Below the pieces are notes generated by a model, which saw only the letters and a list, made by a program, of their open reading frames with translations, was not told where the DNA came from and searched no databases. Made by a program: the position numbers and the translations under genes. A stretch of DNA of 42,939 bases from a virus: IMG/VR virus record IMGVR_UViG_3300011888_000002, positions 1-42,939 of that record; one strand, 5' to 3'. Positions 10,007 to 16,400 of the stretch are shown here, piece by piece. Position 1 is the stretch's first letter. Each line of letters starts with the position of its first letter.

Positions 10007-10180
10007 ATGGCAAAACAATACAAGGCAACTCAGCCTGTCGGTCGCTTTCAAAAAGGCGATGTCGTCGGTGGGCTGGATGATGCACAAATTAAAAAATTAC
10101 TGGCAGATGGTGTCATTCAGGAAGTACCTGAACCTAAAGCCGCTGCTCCAGCCAAGAAAACCACAGGGGATGAAAAGTAA
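10007..10180 (+). CDS. Small 57-aa protein, paralog of the N-terminus of 8285..8644 (not in the ORF track)
   Basis: RBS AGGAG (9996-10000) precedes ATG 10007. The product is MAKQYKATQPVGRFQKGDVVGGLDDAQIKKLLADGVIQEVPEPKAAAPAKKTTGDEK. Its TAA shares one base with ATG 10180 of the tail tube gene. Confidence 0.6.
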   Translation: MAKQYKATQPVGRFQKGDVVGGLDDAQIKKLLADGVIQEVPEPKAAAPAKKTTGDEK

Positions 10181-10923
10181 TGGCTAAATCAGATTTAATC
10201 TCGCTTCAAGGTGAGCTTCATTTGGCGAAGATGGTTAATAGTGTACCTTCCGCATTATTGCCTGTAGGTAATACACCGGAATTGCAAATTGCTATTTCTA
10301 GTGAATCAACGGATCACTATGAAAGCAAAACCGGCCTTCGTACCAAGGATGCAGTATTGCGCAAGCAAACAGCGGTGGCTATTTCTGGTACCTTGGAAGA
10401 AGTAACCAAGCAAAACTTAGCAATGGTTTTAAGTGGCAAATCAATCGAAATCCCTGAAACACAGCTGACTGATGTTAGTCTTGGCGCCGTAGAAGCTGGC
10501 GCGATGATTGATTTAGGTCATCGCAATTTAAGTGAAGTGGCTTTTAAGGATAGCTCAGATGTGGCTATTGAAGCGGATAAGTATGTGCTTGATGCAGTTT
10601 ATGGCACAGTCGTTTTTAATGAAGCTATTGTTGGTTCAGTTAAGTTTTCTGCCAAAGCCGGTGCTAAGACACGTACTACAATTGCAACTAACCTGGGTAA
10701 TGAATATCGCTTGCTGTTTAAAGGCATTGATACCGTTACAGGTGATAAAGTGATTTTAACTTTATGGCGTGTTGAGTTCTCACCAGATACGGAATTTGAT
10801 CTGATCCATGAAGACTTTGGATCTTACTCAATTGAAGGTGAGGCACTCGCAGATATTGCTAAAGCAAATGACGAAGAGCTTAGTGTATTTGGCCATATTG
10901 AGCGCTTCAGTGTAGCTGCATAA
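10180..10923 (+). CDS. Major tail (tube) protein
   Basis: 247 aa placed after the neck genes and before the chaperone and tape measure. No sheath gene is present, so the tail genes are of siphovirus type. Confidence 0.65.
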   Translation: MAKSDLISLQGELHLAKMVNSVPSALLPVGNTPELQIAISSESTDHYESKTGLRTKDAVLRKQTAVAISGTLEEVTKQNLAMVLSGKSIEIPETQLTDVSLGAVEAGAMIDLGHRNLSEVAFKDSSDVAIEADKYVLDAVYGTVVFNEAIVGSVKFSAKAGAKTRTTIATNLGNEYRLLFKGIDTVTGDKVILTLWRVEFSPDTEFDLIHEDFGSYSIEGEALADIAKANDEELSVFGHIERFSVAA

Positions 10924-10929
10924 ACCCAT

Positions 10930-10981
10930 ACAGGCACAAAGAACTCCATAGGAGGCGAAGGCATCTTTTTTTTGTGCCTGT
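10930..10981 (+). terminator. Large hairpin after the tail tube gene (possible terminator or RNA stability element)
   Basis: acaggcacaaa (10930-10940) pairs with tttgtgcctgt (10971-10981). An inner ctcc/ggag mini-hairpin is present. There is no clean downstream T-run. Confidence 0.35.
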
Positions 10982-11167
10982 TTAAAGTCATTATATTTAG
11001 GTCGAACAATCGGTTTATTGATAAGGCCTACAAGAAGATGAGTAAGAAATTGATGTGAGTTAGTTTCTTACTGAATGTGACATTATAACTATGTTTGACG
11101 AAGGTATTAGTCATAAAACGATGCTTTAAAGCTTAACGAATCTTGACAAGACGACGTAAACAGTTTG

Positions 11168-11227
11168 TTGACGACGATATGTACATATAATACTATATTG
11201 ACATAGCCGCAACGCGGTATGAATAAT
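11168..11227 (+). promoter_or_regulatory. Tandem sigma70-like promoters with a palindromic operator candidate for the GNAT moron
   Basis: TTGACG(11168-73)-17-TACTAT(11191-96) and TTGACA(11198-203)-18-AATAAT(11222-27). A perfect palindrome ATATGTACATAT lies at 11177-11188. Confidence 0.45.
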
Positions 11228-11301
11228 TCACATCTAAATCTAGGTGTTGATTTGGTTTAAATACTTAATTCCATATGTATTATTTTTTTGAGTGGTATCT
11301 T

Positions 11302-11451
11302 ATGAAAACACCTGCTATGTTGTTAACTCCAAAATTTGGTGAAGAAGCGACTCGAAAAATCGTAAATGAAGCTCAAAGAAAAATTACTCCTTCACGTAAA
11401 AGCCGTCTTGAAAAACTTGCTGCAATGGCCTCAAAAGCTTATAACAATTAA
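11302..11451 (+). CDS. 49-aa ORF, candidate short antitoxin/partner of the GNAT protein (not in the ORF track)
   Basis: MKTPAMLLTPKFGEEATRKIVNEAQRKITPSRKSRLEKLAAMASKAYNN. It ends 11 nt before the GNAT start. The RBS is weak (GAGTGG). The position is the one used by DUF1778 antitoxins. Confidence 0.45.
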   Translation: MKTPAMLLTPKFGEEATRKIVNEAQRKITPSRKSRLEKLAAMASKAYNN

Positions 11452-11462
11452 GAGTTACTAAT

Positions 11463-12014
11463 TTGTCTGAAGAAAATGTAAATTCTGAGGGCGAGTTACA
11501 ATTTTTTTATATCGATTCAATTGAGAAAGAAGCTTATCAATCGTTTGAATGTGAACGTGGAGAGTTAAACTCTTTTTTGATAGATGACGCTATCGACTAT
11601 CATAACTACGGATTGACCAAAACTACTTTGGTTTTTGAGAGTGATAACCTTATTGGTTTCTTCAGTCTATCCGCGGATAAAATTGTACTTACCCGAACAG
11701 AAATAGATGAACTAGCTTTAAATGGTGAATACCCAATTACTTATTTTCCCGCAGTTAAAATTACAAAGCTTGCAGTTGATAAGGCCTATGCAGGAAAAGG
11801 TTACGGAAGAAGAATACTAGAGTTGATAGAAGGGATCGTATATGGCCATCATATGGCTGTAAGATTTTTAACTTTAGATGCTGTAAATGAACCAAAAGTT
11901 TTAGAGTTCTATCAAAAAAATGGATTTGAAGAAAGCCTTCATGAGTATCGACAGCAGAAACAAAATAGGGCTAGACCAACTATTTTGATGCATAAAGATA
12001 TATTTAAAGAATAA
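11463..12014 (+). CDS. GNAT acetyltransferase with TacT/AtaT/KacT-type toxin motif order
   Basis: TTG start; the first in-frame ATG lies far inside the ORF (at the HHMAVRF segment). Motifs are FECERGELNSFL, GFFSLSADKI, KLAVDKAYAGKGYGRRIL (acetyl-CoA loop) and LEFYQKNGF. Confidence 0.7.
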   Translation: MSEENVNSEGELQFFYIDSIEKEAYQSFECERGELNSFLIDDAIDYHNYGLTKTTLVFESDNLIGFFSLSADKIVLTRTEIDELALNGEYPITYFPAVKITKLAVDKAYAGKGYGRRILELIEGIVYGHHMAVRFLTLDAVNEPKVLEFYQKNGFEESLHEYRQQKQNRARPTILMHKDIFKE

Positions 12015-12036
12015 CCACTCCAAGGAGTGGTTTTTT
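12015..12036 (+). terminator. Intrinsic terminator of the GNAT moron
   Basis: ccactcc (12015-21) / ggagtgg (12024-30) followed by TTTTTT, starting right after the stop codon. Confidence 0.7.
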
Positions 12037-12066
12037 AATGCGTAAAATTTATCTCGAGATTCCATC

Positions 12067-12627
12067 ATGAATGATTTTTTCTTAGCCACAAATCGAAGTA
12101 TTAAGCTTAAAGATATCGAAGTTCGCCAGATCCAGATGAAAGACTTTGACACCTGGGCAATGCATGCTGAAGTATTGAAGAACTTCATCAAAGACCAAAA
12201 TCATTCAGATGAGATTTTGACAGGATTATTTAAGACCCATGGTGTACAGGTCATTTCGACTATTGCCTGTGTTACTGATCTGGACAATGAATCGCTGGTA
12301 GAACTTGCTGCTGATGAGCAGGGCTTTAAAGATTTACTTAAGGCGGTACTTCTGGTCAACCAGGCTTACTTCAAATACGAAAAACCAAAACGTGGTATTA
12401 AAAAGAAAGATGACTCCACCTGGTTTGATTCATTCCAGTTTCTGGTATCAATGGGCCATCAGCATAGTGAAATCATGGAAATGACCTACGGTGCATTCCA
12501 GGGCTATGTTAAGGCAGCAAACAAGATGTATAAGCAGGGCATCTTTAACTCTGCGATTGCTGCACGTGTAGCCCAATCCGACAAAAAGGGCTTTGAATCA
12601 TTCAAGAAAGAAATGGTTTCTGATTGA
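12067..12627 (+). CDS. Tail assembly chaperone (single ORF, no frameshift extension seen)
   Basis: Located between the tail tube and tape measure genes. The C-terminal WFDSFQFLVSMGHQHSEIMEMTYGAFQGYV resembles the T-domain of tail chaperones. Composition matches the structural genes rather than the flanking AT-rich islands. Confidence 0.55.
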   Translation: MNDFFLATNRSIKLKDIEVRQIQMKDFDTWAMHAEVLKNFIKDQNHSDEILTGLFKTHGVQVISTIACVTDLDNESLVELAADEQGFKDLLKAVLLVNQAYFKYEKPKRGIKKKDDSTWFDSFQFLVSMGHQHSEIMEMTYGAFQGYVKAANKMYKQGIFNSAIAARVAQSDKKGFESFKKEMVSD

Positions 12628-12679: not shown

Positions 12680-13372
12680 GTGGCTATAAAATTTTGTAAA
12701 TCGTGTAAAAAGCCAATGAGGCCTACTGATACTCATTGCAAAACGTGTGGTACACAATATAAAAACAATCCATTAATTTTAGTAGTGATGGTATTGATTA
12801 TAGGTGGTTTTGGATATTTTTTATGGAATACATTTGCAGACAAAAATAGTAATAATGACAAGGTGGAAGCAAAGACTATAGCCAATCCTGTTAAAGATGA
12901 AAAACCCAAAGAAACCAAATGGCAGTTAGAGCGTGAGATTGATAAAATGACAGATAAAGAAGGTCTTTATTTGTCTAACAAAGCAATTAATGCTGAAACT
13001 GGTTTGCAAACCAATGCCGGCTTAACAATAGGTTGTTCATATTATGGTGGATTGAATGCTGTTTTTGTGGCAGATACCCCTATCAAAATTCGAGACTTCA
13101 CAAAAGATGGCGCTACAGGTAATTATGAGATTAGATTTGATAACCAACCAATGTCAGAAGGCACCTCAAGCCTATCTTCATTAAATAAGGTTATTGTTTT
13201 AAGCGAAAGCCATCGAATGCAAATAGAAAATAGCTCAAGAATCTTAATCCGCATAACTACGGCACTTGATGGTTATAAGACATATGAAATGGATTCAAAG
13301 AATGGCGGTGAGCAATTTGCGAAAATTAAAGAATTTTGCTTAGAACGAGCCAAAGAGAATAAATCAATTTAA
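12680..13372 (+). CDS. Zinc-ribbon / single-TM / exported-domain protein (moron; possible superinfection exclusion)
   Basis: GTG start after the RBS TAGGGGG. CKSCKKPMRPTDTHCKTCG is followed by the TM segment LILVVMVLIIGGFGYFLW and then about 180 aa of soluble domain. The region is AT-rich. Confidence 0.7.
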   Translation: MAIKFCKSCKKPMRPTDTHCKTCGTQYKNNPLILVVMVLIIGGFGYFLWNTFADKNSNNDKVEAKTIANPVKDEKPKETKWQLEREIDKMTDKEGLYLSNKAINAETGLQTNAGLTIGCSYYGGLNAVFVADTPIKIRDFTKDGATGNYEIRFDNQPMSEGTSSLSSLNKVIVLSESHRMQIENSSRILIRITTALDGYKTYEMDSKNGGEQFAKIKEFCLERAKENKSI

Positions 13373-13434: not shown

Positions 13435-16400
13435 ATGGCTGGAAAAGAACTTACATTTAAACTGGTAATAGATGCTGATACTAAAGACTTTGTATCTAAT
13501 GTTCAGCAGTCTGAGAAAACCGCAAAAGCCCTCTTTGATGCGATAAAAATAGAATCAGATAAACTTAAGACAACATCTGAAGAAACAGCAAAAGAAGTCG
13601 GTAAAATTGTACCAGATGACCTCCAAAAGAAAGCTGATCAGGCTAAAGGCAAGTTAAGTGAAGTGTCTCAAGCAGCTAGTGAACTACAAGGTCAAGCTAT
13701 TGAGGCTGCTGGTAAAATTGATGGTTTAGGCAATGAGCTTCAAGACACAGCAAGCAAGGCTAATAAGGCTGGTTTTGAAATCGGCAGTGCAATTCCGGGT
13801 GATGCTGTTCAACTAGCAGAAATGCTAGGCAATAAGTTCTTCTCTGCCGCAAAAGAAATTGAATCTCTGGGTGATAAATCGACTATCAGTGCTGGTGAAC
13901 TCCGTGCAATGTCGAGTGCTGGGGAGCAGGGGCTTAATGAACTGAATTTGGCACTGAAAGCCGCTCAGGCTGAGTTGGTTCGTCTACAAAGCACTGATGG
14001 CACCCTACAAGACATTGAGATTGCTAAGCAGCGCGTTTTAAGTATTCAAGATGCGATTAACGAAGCCTCCAGTGCCTTCAACTACTACCAAGGTGTAGCG
14101 ATCAATGCCATGAAAGGCGTGGATGGTGCCACTCAATCAGCTATTAACCAGGTCCAACGTTTTAGCGCCGTAGATCTAACTGGGGTAGTAGGGGAAGCAC
14201 AGACTGCCACCCGTGCAATTGAAAGTATGGGTGACGGCGCAAGCCTCAGTACCAAAGAAATTGAACGTATTGGCAGCATTGGCACCAATAGCATTAATGC
14301 CCTAGAGCGTGAATTACTGACAGCAAGAAATGCATTTTCGGCACTAGAGCAAAGCAGTGAAGCTGTAACACTTAATGAGATTAAGGCAGCTGGTGACAAG
14401 GTTAAAGGTCTTGAGCAAGCAGTAGATCTGACTAAATCAGCCTTCTCCGAATTTAATGTAAAAGCCACCACTGCAATGCAGGGCGTTTCCACAAGCACAG
14501 ATAAGGCATCCGGTAGTGCCAAGCAAGCCGGACATGCAATTTATGAAGCATTAGGCATTAAACCGCCGTCCGTGATTAATGATGCTATTGCCGATCTGAC
14601 CAGAAAGCTCGAAAACTTTAAAGCTAACAGTAAATTGCCGGCTGAAGAAGTAGAACGTGTAACCAAGATCACCGAACAGCAAATCGAAAAGCTTAAAAGT
14701 GAATTAAATGGTGTTGAGCCTGCTGCTCAAAAGGCAAATTCTGGTGTTTCTGGGCTATCTAAGGGCATGGAGATTACCAGATTCGCTGCTACAGCTCTTG
14801 CTGGTGCTATGGCCGCCGTAGGTGTGGGTATCGGTGCTAGAGAAATTGCTGAAGCAGCAGATTCTTATACCAACCTTTCAGCCCGGATCAACATTGCAAC
14901 CAGTGAGGGTGGAAACTTTACCCAAGCTATGGCTGGGGTGCATCAAGTTTCGCTGATGACTAATACTAGTCTTGATGCTACTGCAGGTTTATTCACAAAA
15001 GTGAATGATGTGGGCAAGCAGATGGGAATGACCCAGCAGCAAAGCCTGGATCTAGTTAAGACCATCAATATGGCCATCCAAACTGGTGGTGGAGATGCTG
15101 CTGCTAGTGAGGCTGCAATTGTGCAGCTTACTCAGGCATTGCAATCTGGCGTACTACGTGGTGATGAGTTCAATTCCATTATGGAGCAAGCCCCAGGTAT
15201 CTCTAAAGCTTTGGCTCAGTCACTCGGGGTAACCACCGGTGAACTGCGTAAGATGGCTGAGAATGGCGAACTGTCAGCCGAGAAGGTCATCAAGGCATTA
15301 CAAAGCCAATCCGCTGCAATTGAAGCTGATTATGCTAAGTTCCCAACCACCATTGGTAACGCATTGCAGCGTATCACTACACAATGGCAAATCTTGATTG
15401 GCACCATGGACCAAGCAAACGGCGCATCTGCAACTGTGGCGCAATGGCTGGTTACTCTTGCTGACAATATGGACGTAGTGGAGACCATACTTGAGGACAT
15501 TGGCGAGGGATTTATCTGGGTAGGGGATCAGCTTAAGAAGATTGACCCAGCCACATTTGAAGCACTTAAAGAGGCATTAAGTACTGCTTATGAGACTGTA
15601 AAGTCTATGGCCAGTACTATAGGGACTGGAATTGGAAACACTGTAGATCAGTTAAATACACTCCTTGGAGCAATATTTAATTTTGAAAGCGGCATAGATA
15701 CAGCAACAGATAAGACTAATGGCTTCACCAAAGCCCTGCAGGCTCTCAATGTAGTATTTGGATTCATTGGTGATGGTTTTGAAGCAATTAGTATAGTTTC
15801 CAACCTGCTTGCTGGCGTGTTTTATGATGTTGGTGCTGCATGGATAGGGTTTAAAGCCAATTTCAAATGGGGCGATGCCAAGGATCAGGCTATTGCAGAT
15901 ATGGATGCAATGGCCAAGAAAGCACAGGATTATTATGACCGTGCAACTGCTGGTGCAATGGGCTTTAAATCTGCAGGTATTGCTGCTATTGAAGACATTG
16001 GAAAGACCCAAGATCAGAAAAACCAAGAATCCCTGCAGAGCAACAATGCCACCTTTGCAGAACTAGCACAGCAGAATCAAGAATTTACCCAAAAGTCTAA
16101 AGATTTGGCAGCTGAACGTGCTGCCATTGATACACAATTAAATCAGGCTCGCAAGGATGGCAACCAGTCGACCATTGATGCAATTATCCAAAAATCTAAT
16201 GAGCTGGAAGGCCGCGAGAAGGAGCATGCCACCAATAAAGCCTCATTAGATAAGGATATGCTGGCTTCTGCTCAGGACTATGCCGAGGCCGCTATCAAAG
16301 CCAATGGCGGTGTCATGGATGGCGTGATGCAGGCTGATCTATTAACCAAAGGCTACATCGTTACCATTGATGAAGCTGGCAAAGTATCTGTTCAAGCTGG

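Follow-up and report, generated by a model that had tools for sequence, protein, structure and literature searches.

Within the tail module of a 42,939-nucleotide (nt) stretch of viral DNA (IMG/VR virus record IMGVR_UViG_3300011888_000002, positions 1 to 42,939; the whole stretch is referred to as the window in the following), a two-gene cassette is found which encodes a basic protein of 49 amino acids (aa) and, downstream of it, an acidic acetyltransferase of the GNAT family with 183 aa. The enzyme shares its lineage with the tRNA-acetylating toxins TacT, AtaT, KacT, ItaT and GmvT and has kept their catalytic core. Moreover, the cassette is self-contained and horizontally mobile, its two genes moving as one unit. 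The anatomy of the cassette, its homology, the conservation of the pair and its mobility are all directly observed. Regarding its candidate function, we lean slightly towards a toxin-antitoxin (TA)-like moron with a new minimal partner. The cassette comprises the following elements, all coordinates being those of the window:

11463 to 12014, plus strand: acidic GNAT acetyltransferase of 183 aa with TTG start (Pfam Acetyltransf_7/1/10, above cut-off; phrog_1758, E 1.2e-41)
11302 to 11451, plus strand: basic helical protein of 49 aa, candidate neutralising partner (phrog_35294, E 3.4e-23)
11168 to 11196, plus strand: promoter-like site P1, TTGACG (11168-73), 17-nt spacer, TACTAT (11191-96); position kept in homologous cassettes
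11198 to 11227, plus strand: promoter-like site P2, TTGACA (11198-203), 18-nt spacer, AATAAT (11222-27); 11/12 positions, found in the window's lineage only
11177 to 11188, no strand assigned: 12-bp palindrome ATATGTACATAT, perfect and operator-like, in the spacer of P1; inverted repeats recur in homologous promoters
12013 to 12036, plus strand: intrinsic terminator with 8-bp stem, 4-nt loop and T run; hairpin and T run in the same place in phage B1251

An earlier inspection of the window from its letters alone (the sequence-only reading) had already placed the promoters, the palindrome and a further half-site (ATATGTA, 11273-79), both open reading frames (ORFs) and the terminator, and all of its coordinates are correct.

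The enzyme, its partner and their joint inheritance

The frame of the GNAT enzyme opens only at 11445 and offers TTG 11463 as its sole canonical start, which is kept in all Acinetobacter cassettes. Its proposed relationship to the TacT/AtaT toxins is borne out by sequence as well as structure, as the best matches are tRNA-acetylating toxins and not housekeeping acetyltransferases. Using the single sequence, KacT is the best match in the Protein Data Bank (PDB; 2.3e-7, residues 26-161), and AtaT, TacT3 and AtaT2 are matched as well. With a family profile built from 35 sequences, the top 15 PDB sequences are all tRNA-acetylating toxins (AtaT2, GmvT, KacT, TacT and AtaT, 1.2e-15 to 8.6e-11), followed after a 10^6-fold gap by a generic GNAT at 1.5e-4. 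This search also served as a check for non-toxin acetyltransferases as best profile matches; toxins lead instead. An AlphaFold2 (AF2) model of the enzyme (predicted local distance difference test, pLDDT, 87.7) gives the same ranking in Foldseek, where ranks 1-38 are occupied by chains of AtaT, AtaT2, TacT1-3, KacT and GmvT with query TM-scores (TMq) of 0.61-0.69, and NAT10, GCN5 and similar proteins follow at about 0.5-0.56. Identity to the solved toxins in these Foldseek alignments is 15-23%.

At the residue level, Y150 is aligned to the catalytic tyrosines Y145 of KacT and Y144 of AtaT and is invariant in the 35 family members. Likewise invariant is G115, the equivalent of AtaT G108, and the segment AGKGYG is aligned to QGQGWG in the acetyl coenzyme A (AcCoA) loop of KacT; the enzyme hence possesses a GNAT fold with the AcCoA-binding Q/R-x-x-G-x-G/A loop. 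An N-terminal FxC...L..FL motif is common to the enzyme and the toxins and is invariant or nearly so within the family.

The ORF of the small protein extends from ATG 11302 to TAA 11449-51. This start is the one kept in homologues, and phrog_35294 itself is a profile of 49 positions. For a survey of the pair, the GNAT family was used to collect loci from viral contigs, genomes and metagenomes. Wherever a close-clade locus offered 200 nt of flank or more, a homologous ORF of 49-63 aa lies directly upstream of the GNAT gene, with a taxonomic spread covering Acinetobacter, Pseudomonas (Pseudomonas alliivorans) and Burkholderiaceae (Paraburkholderia and a Burkholderiaceae metagenome-assembled genome). 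The consensus of the small proteins reads MKPxAxxxTPxLxxxASRxLVxxVxxVxLTxxRRxxLxxxAxxAxxAF, in which K2, R32, L36 and A46 are invariant. When the window is compared with other Acinetobacter versions, the ratio of non-synonymous to synonymous substitution rates (dN/dS) amounts to 0.17-0.32, and among four cassettes it is zero at dS 0.03-0.38; hence, the small ORF is translated and under purifying selection. The protein is strongly basic, with an isoelectric point (pI) of 10.45 and a net charge of +6.5 (family median pI 11.0). According to its AF2 model (pLDDT 81), residues 1-13 are unstructured and two helices span residues 14-25 and 30-48.

Homologues of the small protein are rare in databases. 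When 1.84 billion representatives were searched exhaustively with the profile, only 49 clusters were returned, nearly all of 49-65 aa, and an indexed search yielded 18 'hypothetical proteins', all without Pfam domain. Pfam searches with 19 members of the small family at E<=10 gave no match, nor did Foldseek with the model of the 49-aa protein. A second partner family occurs elsewhere: in low-G+C metagenomic loci (L033-L043), a distant GNAT clade of 31-36% identity is tied to a different protein of 49-58 aa (MASKVNPTPTL.G.DAKRFIEKLN.PST...), which is encoded upstream, downstream on the same strand, or convergently. The second partner family of low-G+C loci (A6) is matched only weakly to the window partner by hhalign (28%, E 6e-4). 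A6 aligns to the C-terminal toxin-binding region of DUF1778 which the window partner recalls by eye (see below), but at a probability of only 0.4%.

The genetic organisation of the pair resembles that of TA modules in several respects. The small partner gene lies directly upstream of the enzyme gene in one operon and is strictly co-inherited with it, as is characteristic of a TA module. It comes first and has an ATG start, while the enzyme follows with its conserved TTG start; the gap between them is 11 nt in the window, and in beta-proteobacterial versions stop and start overlap by 11 nt. The charges of the two proteins are complementary (-11 for the enzyme, +6.5 for the partner), a pattern found throughout the family. 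In three loci (L059, L060 and L068), the GNAT gene is truncated, frameshifted or replaced in its C-terminal part, and the small ORF is intact; conversely, no intact close-clade GNAT without partner was encountered among the close-clade loci fetched. Decay of the enzyme with retention of the partner, never the reverse, fits a toxin with its antidote and argues against reversed roles.

The domain of the small protein also occurs in genes without an accompanying GNAT (P0112 and P0117). P0112 (L161, 2501-2788) is an orphan small domain extended by 40 aa at its N-terminus. Its gene begins at the stop codon of a PemK toxin gene, and the surrounding island, known from many contigs, comprises PemI-like, PemK, ParE and RhuM genes but lacks a GNAT (38 blocks of the collection are listed in the index, and 17 contigs were read). 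In P0117 (L154, 529-963), present on 6 metagenomic contigs, the N-terminal zinc domain of MqsA (Pfam 2e-29) is fused to the small-partner domain, which replaces the helix-turn-helix (HTH) domain of MqsA; a gene of winged-helix type (PF25212) precedes it, and no GNAT is found within 209 nt downstream. Other pairs adjoin HipBA or lie on plasmid- or phage-like contigs. Outside phages, the neighbourhood consists of TA islands with HipBA, PemIK and ParE.

Control signals, mobility and the tail-module insertion site

The sequence-only reading had credited the cassette with promoters of its own, which holds for P1 and requires restriction for P2. In an alignment of six diverged Acinetobacter cassettes, a TTGAC(A/G/T) box, a spacer of 17-18 nt and a TAnnAT box are kept at P1, and P2 is not matched by any promoter in the other aligned cassettes. 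With 11 of 12 positions, P2 (11198) is nevertheless the best-scoring site in 3.6 kb; the total number of promoter-like sites is not above that in shuffled sequences (14 vs 11.7 +/- 3.1). A 12-bp palindrome such as that in the P1 spacer is not unusual by itself: the window contains 14 of them, and the probability that one falls in the 317 nt upstream is 15%. Perfect 6+6 inverted repeats, however, are present in 4 of the 6 homologous promoters, a count reached in only 5e-5 of spacer shuffles. A second perfect 12-bp palindrome, TATCCGCGGATA, is located within the GNAT coding region (11668-11679); with 14 of this kind across the window, chance is the probable explanation. The possibility that the promoter palindrome is an operator of the prophage repressor was rejected, as the half-site is absent near the putative immunity region at about 35.8-36.9 kb. 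At the other end of the unit, the proposed terminator is present as described, its stem extending over 12013-12032 and its T6 run to 12036. A search of positions 10900-12100 against Rfam returned nothing, and hence no known leader or small RNA is encoded there.

Mobility of the cassette becomes apparent from its relatives. In the Acinetobacter phages YMC/09/02/B1251 and YC#06, two annotated genes correspond to the pair of the window, with an identity of 74% for the enzyme and 61% for the small protein, and the cassette is present in many IMG/VR prophage contigs. The DNA similarity of those cassettes to the window is limited to 11297-12052, i.e. the two genes and the terminator, and their slot varies: the cassette follows the chaperone gene in L058 and the tape measure gene in L003, and in B1251, L053 and L055 it precedes the tape measure gene, with a chaperone-like gene on one side and lipoprotein genes on the other. 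A megablast search of the island against GenBank phages gave no match, so that relatives were reached at the protein level only. The annotation of Acinetobacter sp. YZS-X1-1 includes an identical GNAT protein; therefore, the window most likely represents an Acinetobacter prophage.

In the window, the inserted island with the cassette is flanked by conserved backbone elements:

10180 to 10923, plus strand: tail tube gene, left backbone flank (NCBIfam tail_tube_6XGR, E 2.4e-66; phrog_807 major tail protein, E 2.4e-70)
10931 to 10980, plus strand: nested hairpin and T8 run, last backbone element before the variable slot; kept in all compared relatives
10984 to 12026, plus strand: island of low G+C (moron), inserted at the tube/chaperone hotspot and delimited by composition and backbone break points
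12067 to 12627, plus strand: tail assembly chaperone-like gene, right backbone flank (phrog_14432, E 6.6e-87; phrog_1442, E 1.6e-5)

That an AT-rich island interrupts the tail module, as had been suggested, is confirmed by composition and break points alike. The island has 33% G+C; over 11000-12200 the G+C content is 0.33-0.36 compared to 0.42-0.50 in the left-hand tail genes, and backbone DNA homology with relatives ends at 10983 and restarts at 12027. Directly 3' of the tail tube gene, a hairpin is formed by CAGGCACAAA...TTTGTGCCTG around an inner stem (10931-10980), and the sequences of relatives part right after it; this nested hairpin resembles a terminator or attenuator within the late operon.

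For comparison of the insertion site, the distance from tail tube to chaperone gene was measured in 80 viral contigs encoding tail tube relatives (L074-L153). It amounts to 73-80 nt in 12 loci, while in the remaining ones the two genes are separated by low-G+C cargo of about 250 nt to 2.6 kb, including several lipoproteins, an AntA-type antirepressor, a DUF2158 protein and an HTH protein. The GNAT pair itself occupies this slot in a single contig only, the near-identical L104/L044. Break points in the backbone together with variable cargo in relatives confirm an insertion between tail tube and chaperone genes and identify the site as a general moron hotspot. The island displays the marks of a moron, namely its own promoter and terminator, a deviating composition and absence at the same site in close relatives.

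Several further observations concern this region. Hotspot cargo also includes an unannotated pair of 262-aa and 133-aa proteins; the guess that the 133-aa protein is a HEPN protein was dropped, as it finds no support in Pfam. Many inserts close with a hairpin and T run just ahead of a conserved right flank of 30 nt. In the window, the chaperone-like gene is followed by a second low-G+C ORF (12680-13372, G+C 0.32-0.36, 230 aa) and then by the tape measure ORF of 1515 aa at 13435. The 230-aa ORF, with an N-terminal zinc-ribbon-like CxxC...CxxC motif, a transmembrane stretch and weak Pfam/PHROG matches, breaks the usual adjacency of chaperone and tape measure genes and is probably another moron.

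Proposed function and its rivals

If the pair acts as a TA-like moron, its mode of action could be envisaged as follows. With a sigma-70 promoter and a terminator of its own, the cassette would be expressible from a repressed prophage. The small protein, started by ATG and encoded first in the operon, would be made in excess over the TTG-started enzyme, bind to the acidic enzyme and block its activity. Upon depletion of the partner, the enzyme would acetylate an essential target and cause growth arrest, which in turn might stabilise the prophage or abort infection by other phages. Physical interaction, toxicity, target and benefit to the phage are what we infer here from anatomy and homology. 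Aminoacyl-tRNA as target is a default guess adopted from the relatives and not a secure one, its chances being even at best. In terms of size, neutralisation by 49 aa is plausible, as the toxin-bound C-terminal antitoxin fragments which have been crystallised comprise only 46 aa in case of AtaR (6gtq_C) and 36 aa in case of TacA3 (7ak9_C). Since the partner has no detectable ribbon-helix-helix domain, the classical autoregulation by antitoxins would not be expected.

A number of results weigh against a TA-like function. No curated NCBIfam toxin model matches the enzyme, and among the defence models of PADLOC-DB 2.0 no family is matched at E<=1 by either the enzyme or the 49-aa protein. The literature yielded neither an experiment on the pair or any homologue nor a publication dealing with the Acinetobacter phage genes. 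With a pI of 4.96 and a net charge of -11 (the family median pI is the same), the enzyme is acidic, compared to a pI of 8.7 for the KacT-type protein of phage Cyrano. Toxicity of AtaT requires the basic residues H34/R37/R40 of helix alpha1 and K77/K79/K81/K82 of alpha3 as well as R95, F30 and Y85, of which K77/K79 are not conserved outside close relatives (Yashiro et al., PMC7595197). When mapped onto the enzyme by sequence alone in the KacT alignment, the alpha1 residues H34/R37/R40 are found as D42/D45/N48, and the four lysines of alpha3 (K77/K79/K81/K82) coincide with an acidic segment, E83-E89. Of the AtaT toxicity residues, F30 (as F38) and R95 (as K102) alone are retained, both being invariant in the family, and the family consensus at the tRNA-contact positions is acidic, too ('EDA', 'ExxEL'). 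As the basic contacts are replaced by acidic or neutral residues, the AtaT-type tRNA-binding surface is not conserved. All members of the family share a basic stretch, YRQQKQNRAR (162-171), which could act as RNA-binding substitute. Hence, the label 'TacT/AtaT-like' applies to lineage and catalytic core, whereas, as mechanism, it is less secure given the loss of the basic acceptor-stem contacts and the net charge of -11.

The partner likewise departs from expectation. In hhalign, the small family reaches a probability of 1.2% against DUF1778, its hmmsearch score lies within that of shuffled sequences, and no TacA, AtaR or KacA chain was found with the small-family profile in the PDB. By eye, the succession of helix, proline loop and helix recalls the C-terminal toxin-binding region of AtaR, KacA and TacA3, but a truncated DUF1778 was rejected since PDB profile, Pfam, hhalign and shuffles are all negative. 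Neither AF2 nor Foldseek revealed a recognised DNA-binding fold in the 49-aa protein. The half-size partner had been suggested to be a minimal or new antitoxin type, the other option being that the pair works differently. It is indeed a genuine and conserved protein, with about half the length of DUF1778 proteins, and, as no homology to DUF1778 was detected, a new antitoxin type is the better of both options. Less favourable is the outcome for the idea that the small protein binds the palindromic operator. L053 and L055 encode identical small proteins and carry different repeats (TTGACAA-AA-TTGTCAA vs TTTACTATAGTAAA); hence, the palindrome is probably not the operator of the small protein, and another factor probably recognises these operator-like sequences.

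Alternatively, the enzyme could be a protein acetyltransferase derived from the toxin lineage which does not arrest growth but binds a basic protein with its acidic surface, i.e. its small partner as substrate or adaptor, or a nucleic-acid-binding protein of host or phage, and serves in lysogenic conversion or anti-defence. We regard this as possible but unlikely. The net charge of -11, the AtaT acceptor-stem contacts turned acidic and a very basic partner with invariant Lys2 and Pro4 in its unstructured N-terminus would all agree with such a role. The same architecture of a basic 58-aa protein and an acidic GNAT is found in Listeria phage A118 beside anti-CRISPR genes, and AcrVA5 of Moraxella prophages provides the example of a GNAT acetylating Cas12a. 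The retained catalytic core and N-terminal motif of the toxins, the decay of the enzyme next to a preserved partner and the presence of the pair in TA islands outside phages speak for a toxin instead, and the basic stretch 162-171 could still bind RNA. For toxin-like GNATs of this kind, 'different physiological functions' have been allowed for (Bikmetov et al. 2022, PMC9177977). In a more specific and rather improbable version, the cassette would constitute a new kind of acetylation module: its acidic enzyme, descended from GNAT toxins, would act on a basic protein instead of tRNA, and the partner would be substrate, adaptor or switch. The target of the enzyme might then be the 49-aa partner itself with its invariant Lys2, or a nucleic-acid-binding protein of host or phage. 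If true, this would be the first re-targeting of the toxin lineage from RNA to protein inside prophages.

Two further explanations concern the small gene. Enzymes acting as antitoxins are known from type VII systems, and the invariant Lys2 and the complementary charges would also suit reversed roles, with a harmful small basic protein being neutralised by acetylation. This is highly improbable, considering that the small ORF is intact and identical in three prophage loci whose GNAT is broken, that orphan genes of the small domain exist in many contigs, and that the small gene comes first in the operon with the stronger start codon. Hardly credible is the idea that the 49-aa ORF is a mere translated leader or coupling device of the GNAT gene whose product has no function. 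Although the ORF is very short, immediately upstream and, in some lineages, overlapping with the GNAT start, its sequence is kept across gamma- and beta-proteobacteria including the four invariant residues, no non-synonymous change is seen at dS up to 0.38 (dN/dS 0-0.32 overall), its two-helix model is confident, and the small domain occurs without GNAT, too. The conservation pattern thus already contradicts a leader-only role.

Comparison with known systems

The partners of known GNAT toxins are nearly always DUF1778 proteins, with DUF4065 as the sole published exception. With the GNAT/DUF1778 type II systems (TacAT, AtaRT, KacAT, ItaRT/AtaT2-AtaR2, GmvAT), the cassette shares a homologous enzyme including catalytic tyrosine, AcCoA glycine and FxC...L..FL motif, as well as a two-gene operon on mobile elements with the small gene in first position. 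In contrast, their antitoxins comprise about 90 aa, while the partner here has 49 aa and no detectable ribbon-helix-helix or DUF1778 similarity, and the enzyme is acidic and devoid of AtaT's basic tRNA contacts. In a survey published in Nucleic Acids Research, Bikmetov et al. (2022, PMC9177977) delineated a 'true TA clade' of DUF1778-associated GNATs as well as a DUF4065-associated subclade (clade C). Furthermore, they noted other toxin-like GNATs in TA-like bicistronic loci with short, divergent upstream ORFs devoid of a predictable DNA-binding domain, and speculated on unidentified antitoxins or other functions. Compared by description only, these loci outside the 'true TA clade' fit the pair of the window exactly. 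Whether GNATs outside that clade are toxins is left open in the survey, which has to be added to the points that weigh against a TA-like function. The class of TA-like GNAT loci is therefore already on record (PMC9177977), whereas the partner family described here is new and uncharacterised; in place of 'divergent short ORFs', it is a conserved family with 100% co-occurrence in the loci fetched. The DUF4065-GNAT pairs offer a precedent for a GNAT toxin in which DUF1778 has been swapped for another partner, although the partner here matches neither DUF4065 nor any other Pfam family.

Among phages, Listeria phage A118 (gp26/gp27; L072, 2290-3052) and Bacillus phage phi4B1 (gp24/gp25; L073, 2276-3013) likewise encode an ORF of 55-58 aa directly upstream of a toxin-like GNAT with FxC...FL motif, located in the accessory region between lysis genes and integrase. 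For A118, the annotation encloses the pair in a putative promoter and terminator, AcrIIA1-3 adjoin on the opposite strand, and the pattern of a basic small protein and an acidic GNAT is shared. The GNATs of both phages are only 24-30% identical to that of the window, and a characterisation of either pair was not found in the literature. A similarity of the window partner to A118 gp26 and phi4B1 gp24 that was seen by eye is not above shuffles and was discarded.

With its conserved 49-aa partner and an enzyme that has the catalytic core but not the basic tRNA-binding surface, the locus offers a clean and compact test case, and the cassette moves among tail-module slots of Acinetobacter prophages, including relatives of phage YMC/09/02/B1251. 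Should the pair prove toxic and neutralising, it would provide a minimal antitoxin without DNA-binding domain and a prophage growth-arrest module in a clinically important genus; should the enzyme not be toxic, a toxin fold would have been reused for another purpose.

As for the position in the genome, prophage tail modules are known to harbour morons of the cor/llp type, which are genes for exclusion lipoproteins. Like the cassette described here, these are low-G+C inserts with their own promoter and terminator between tail genes, but they encode surface-exclusion proteins, whereas the cargo of the window is an enzyme together with its partner.

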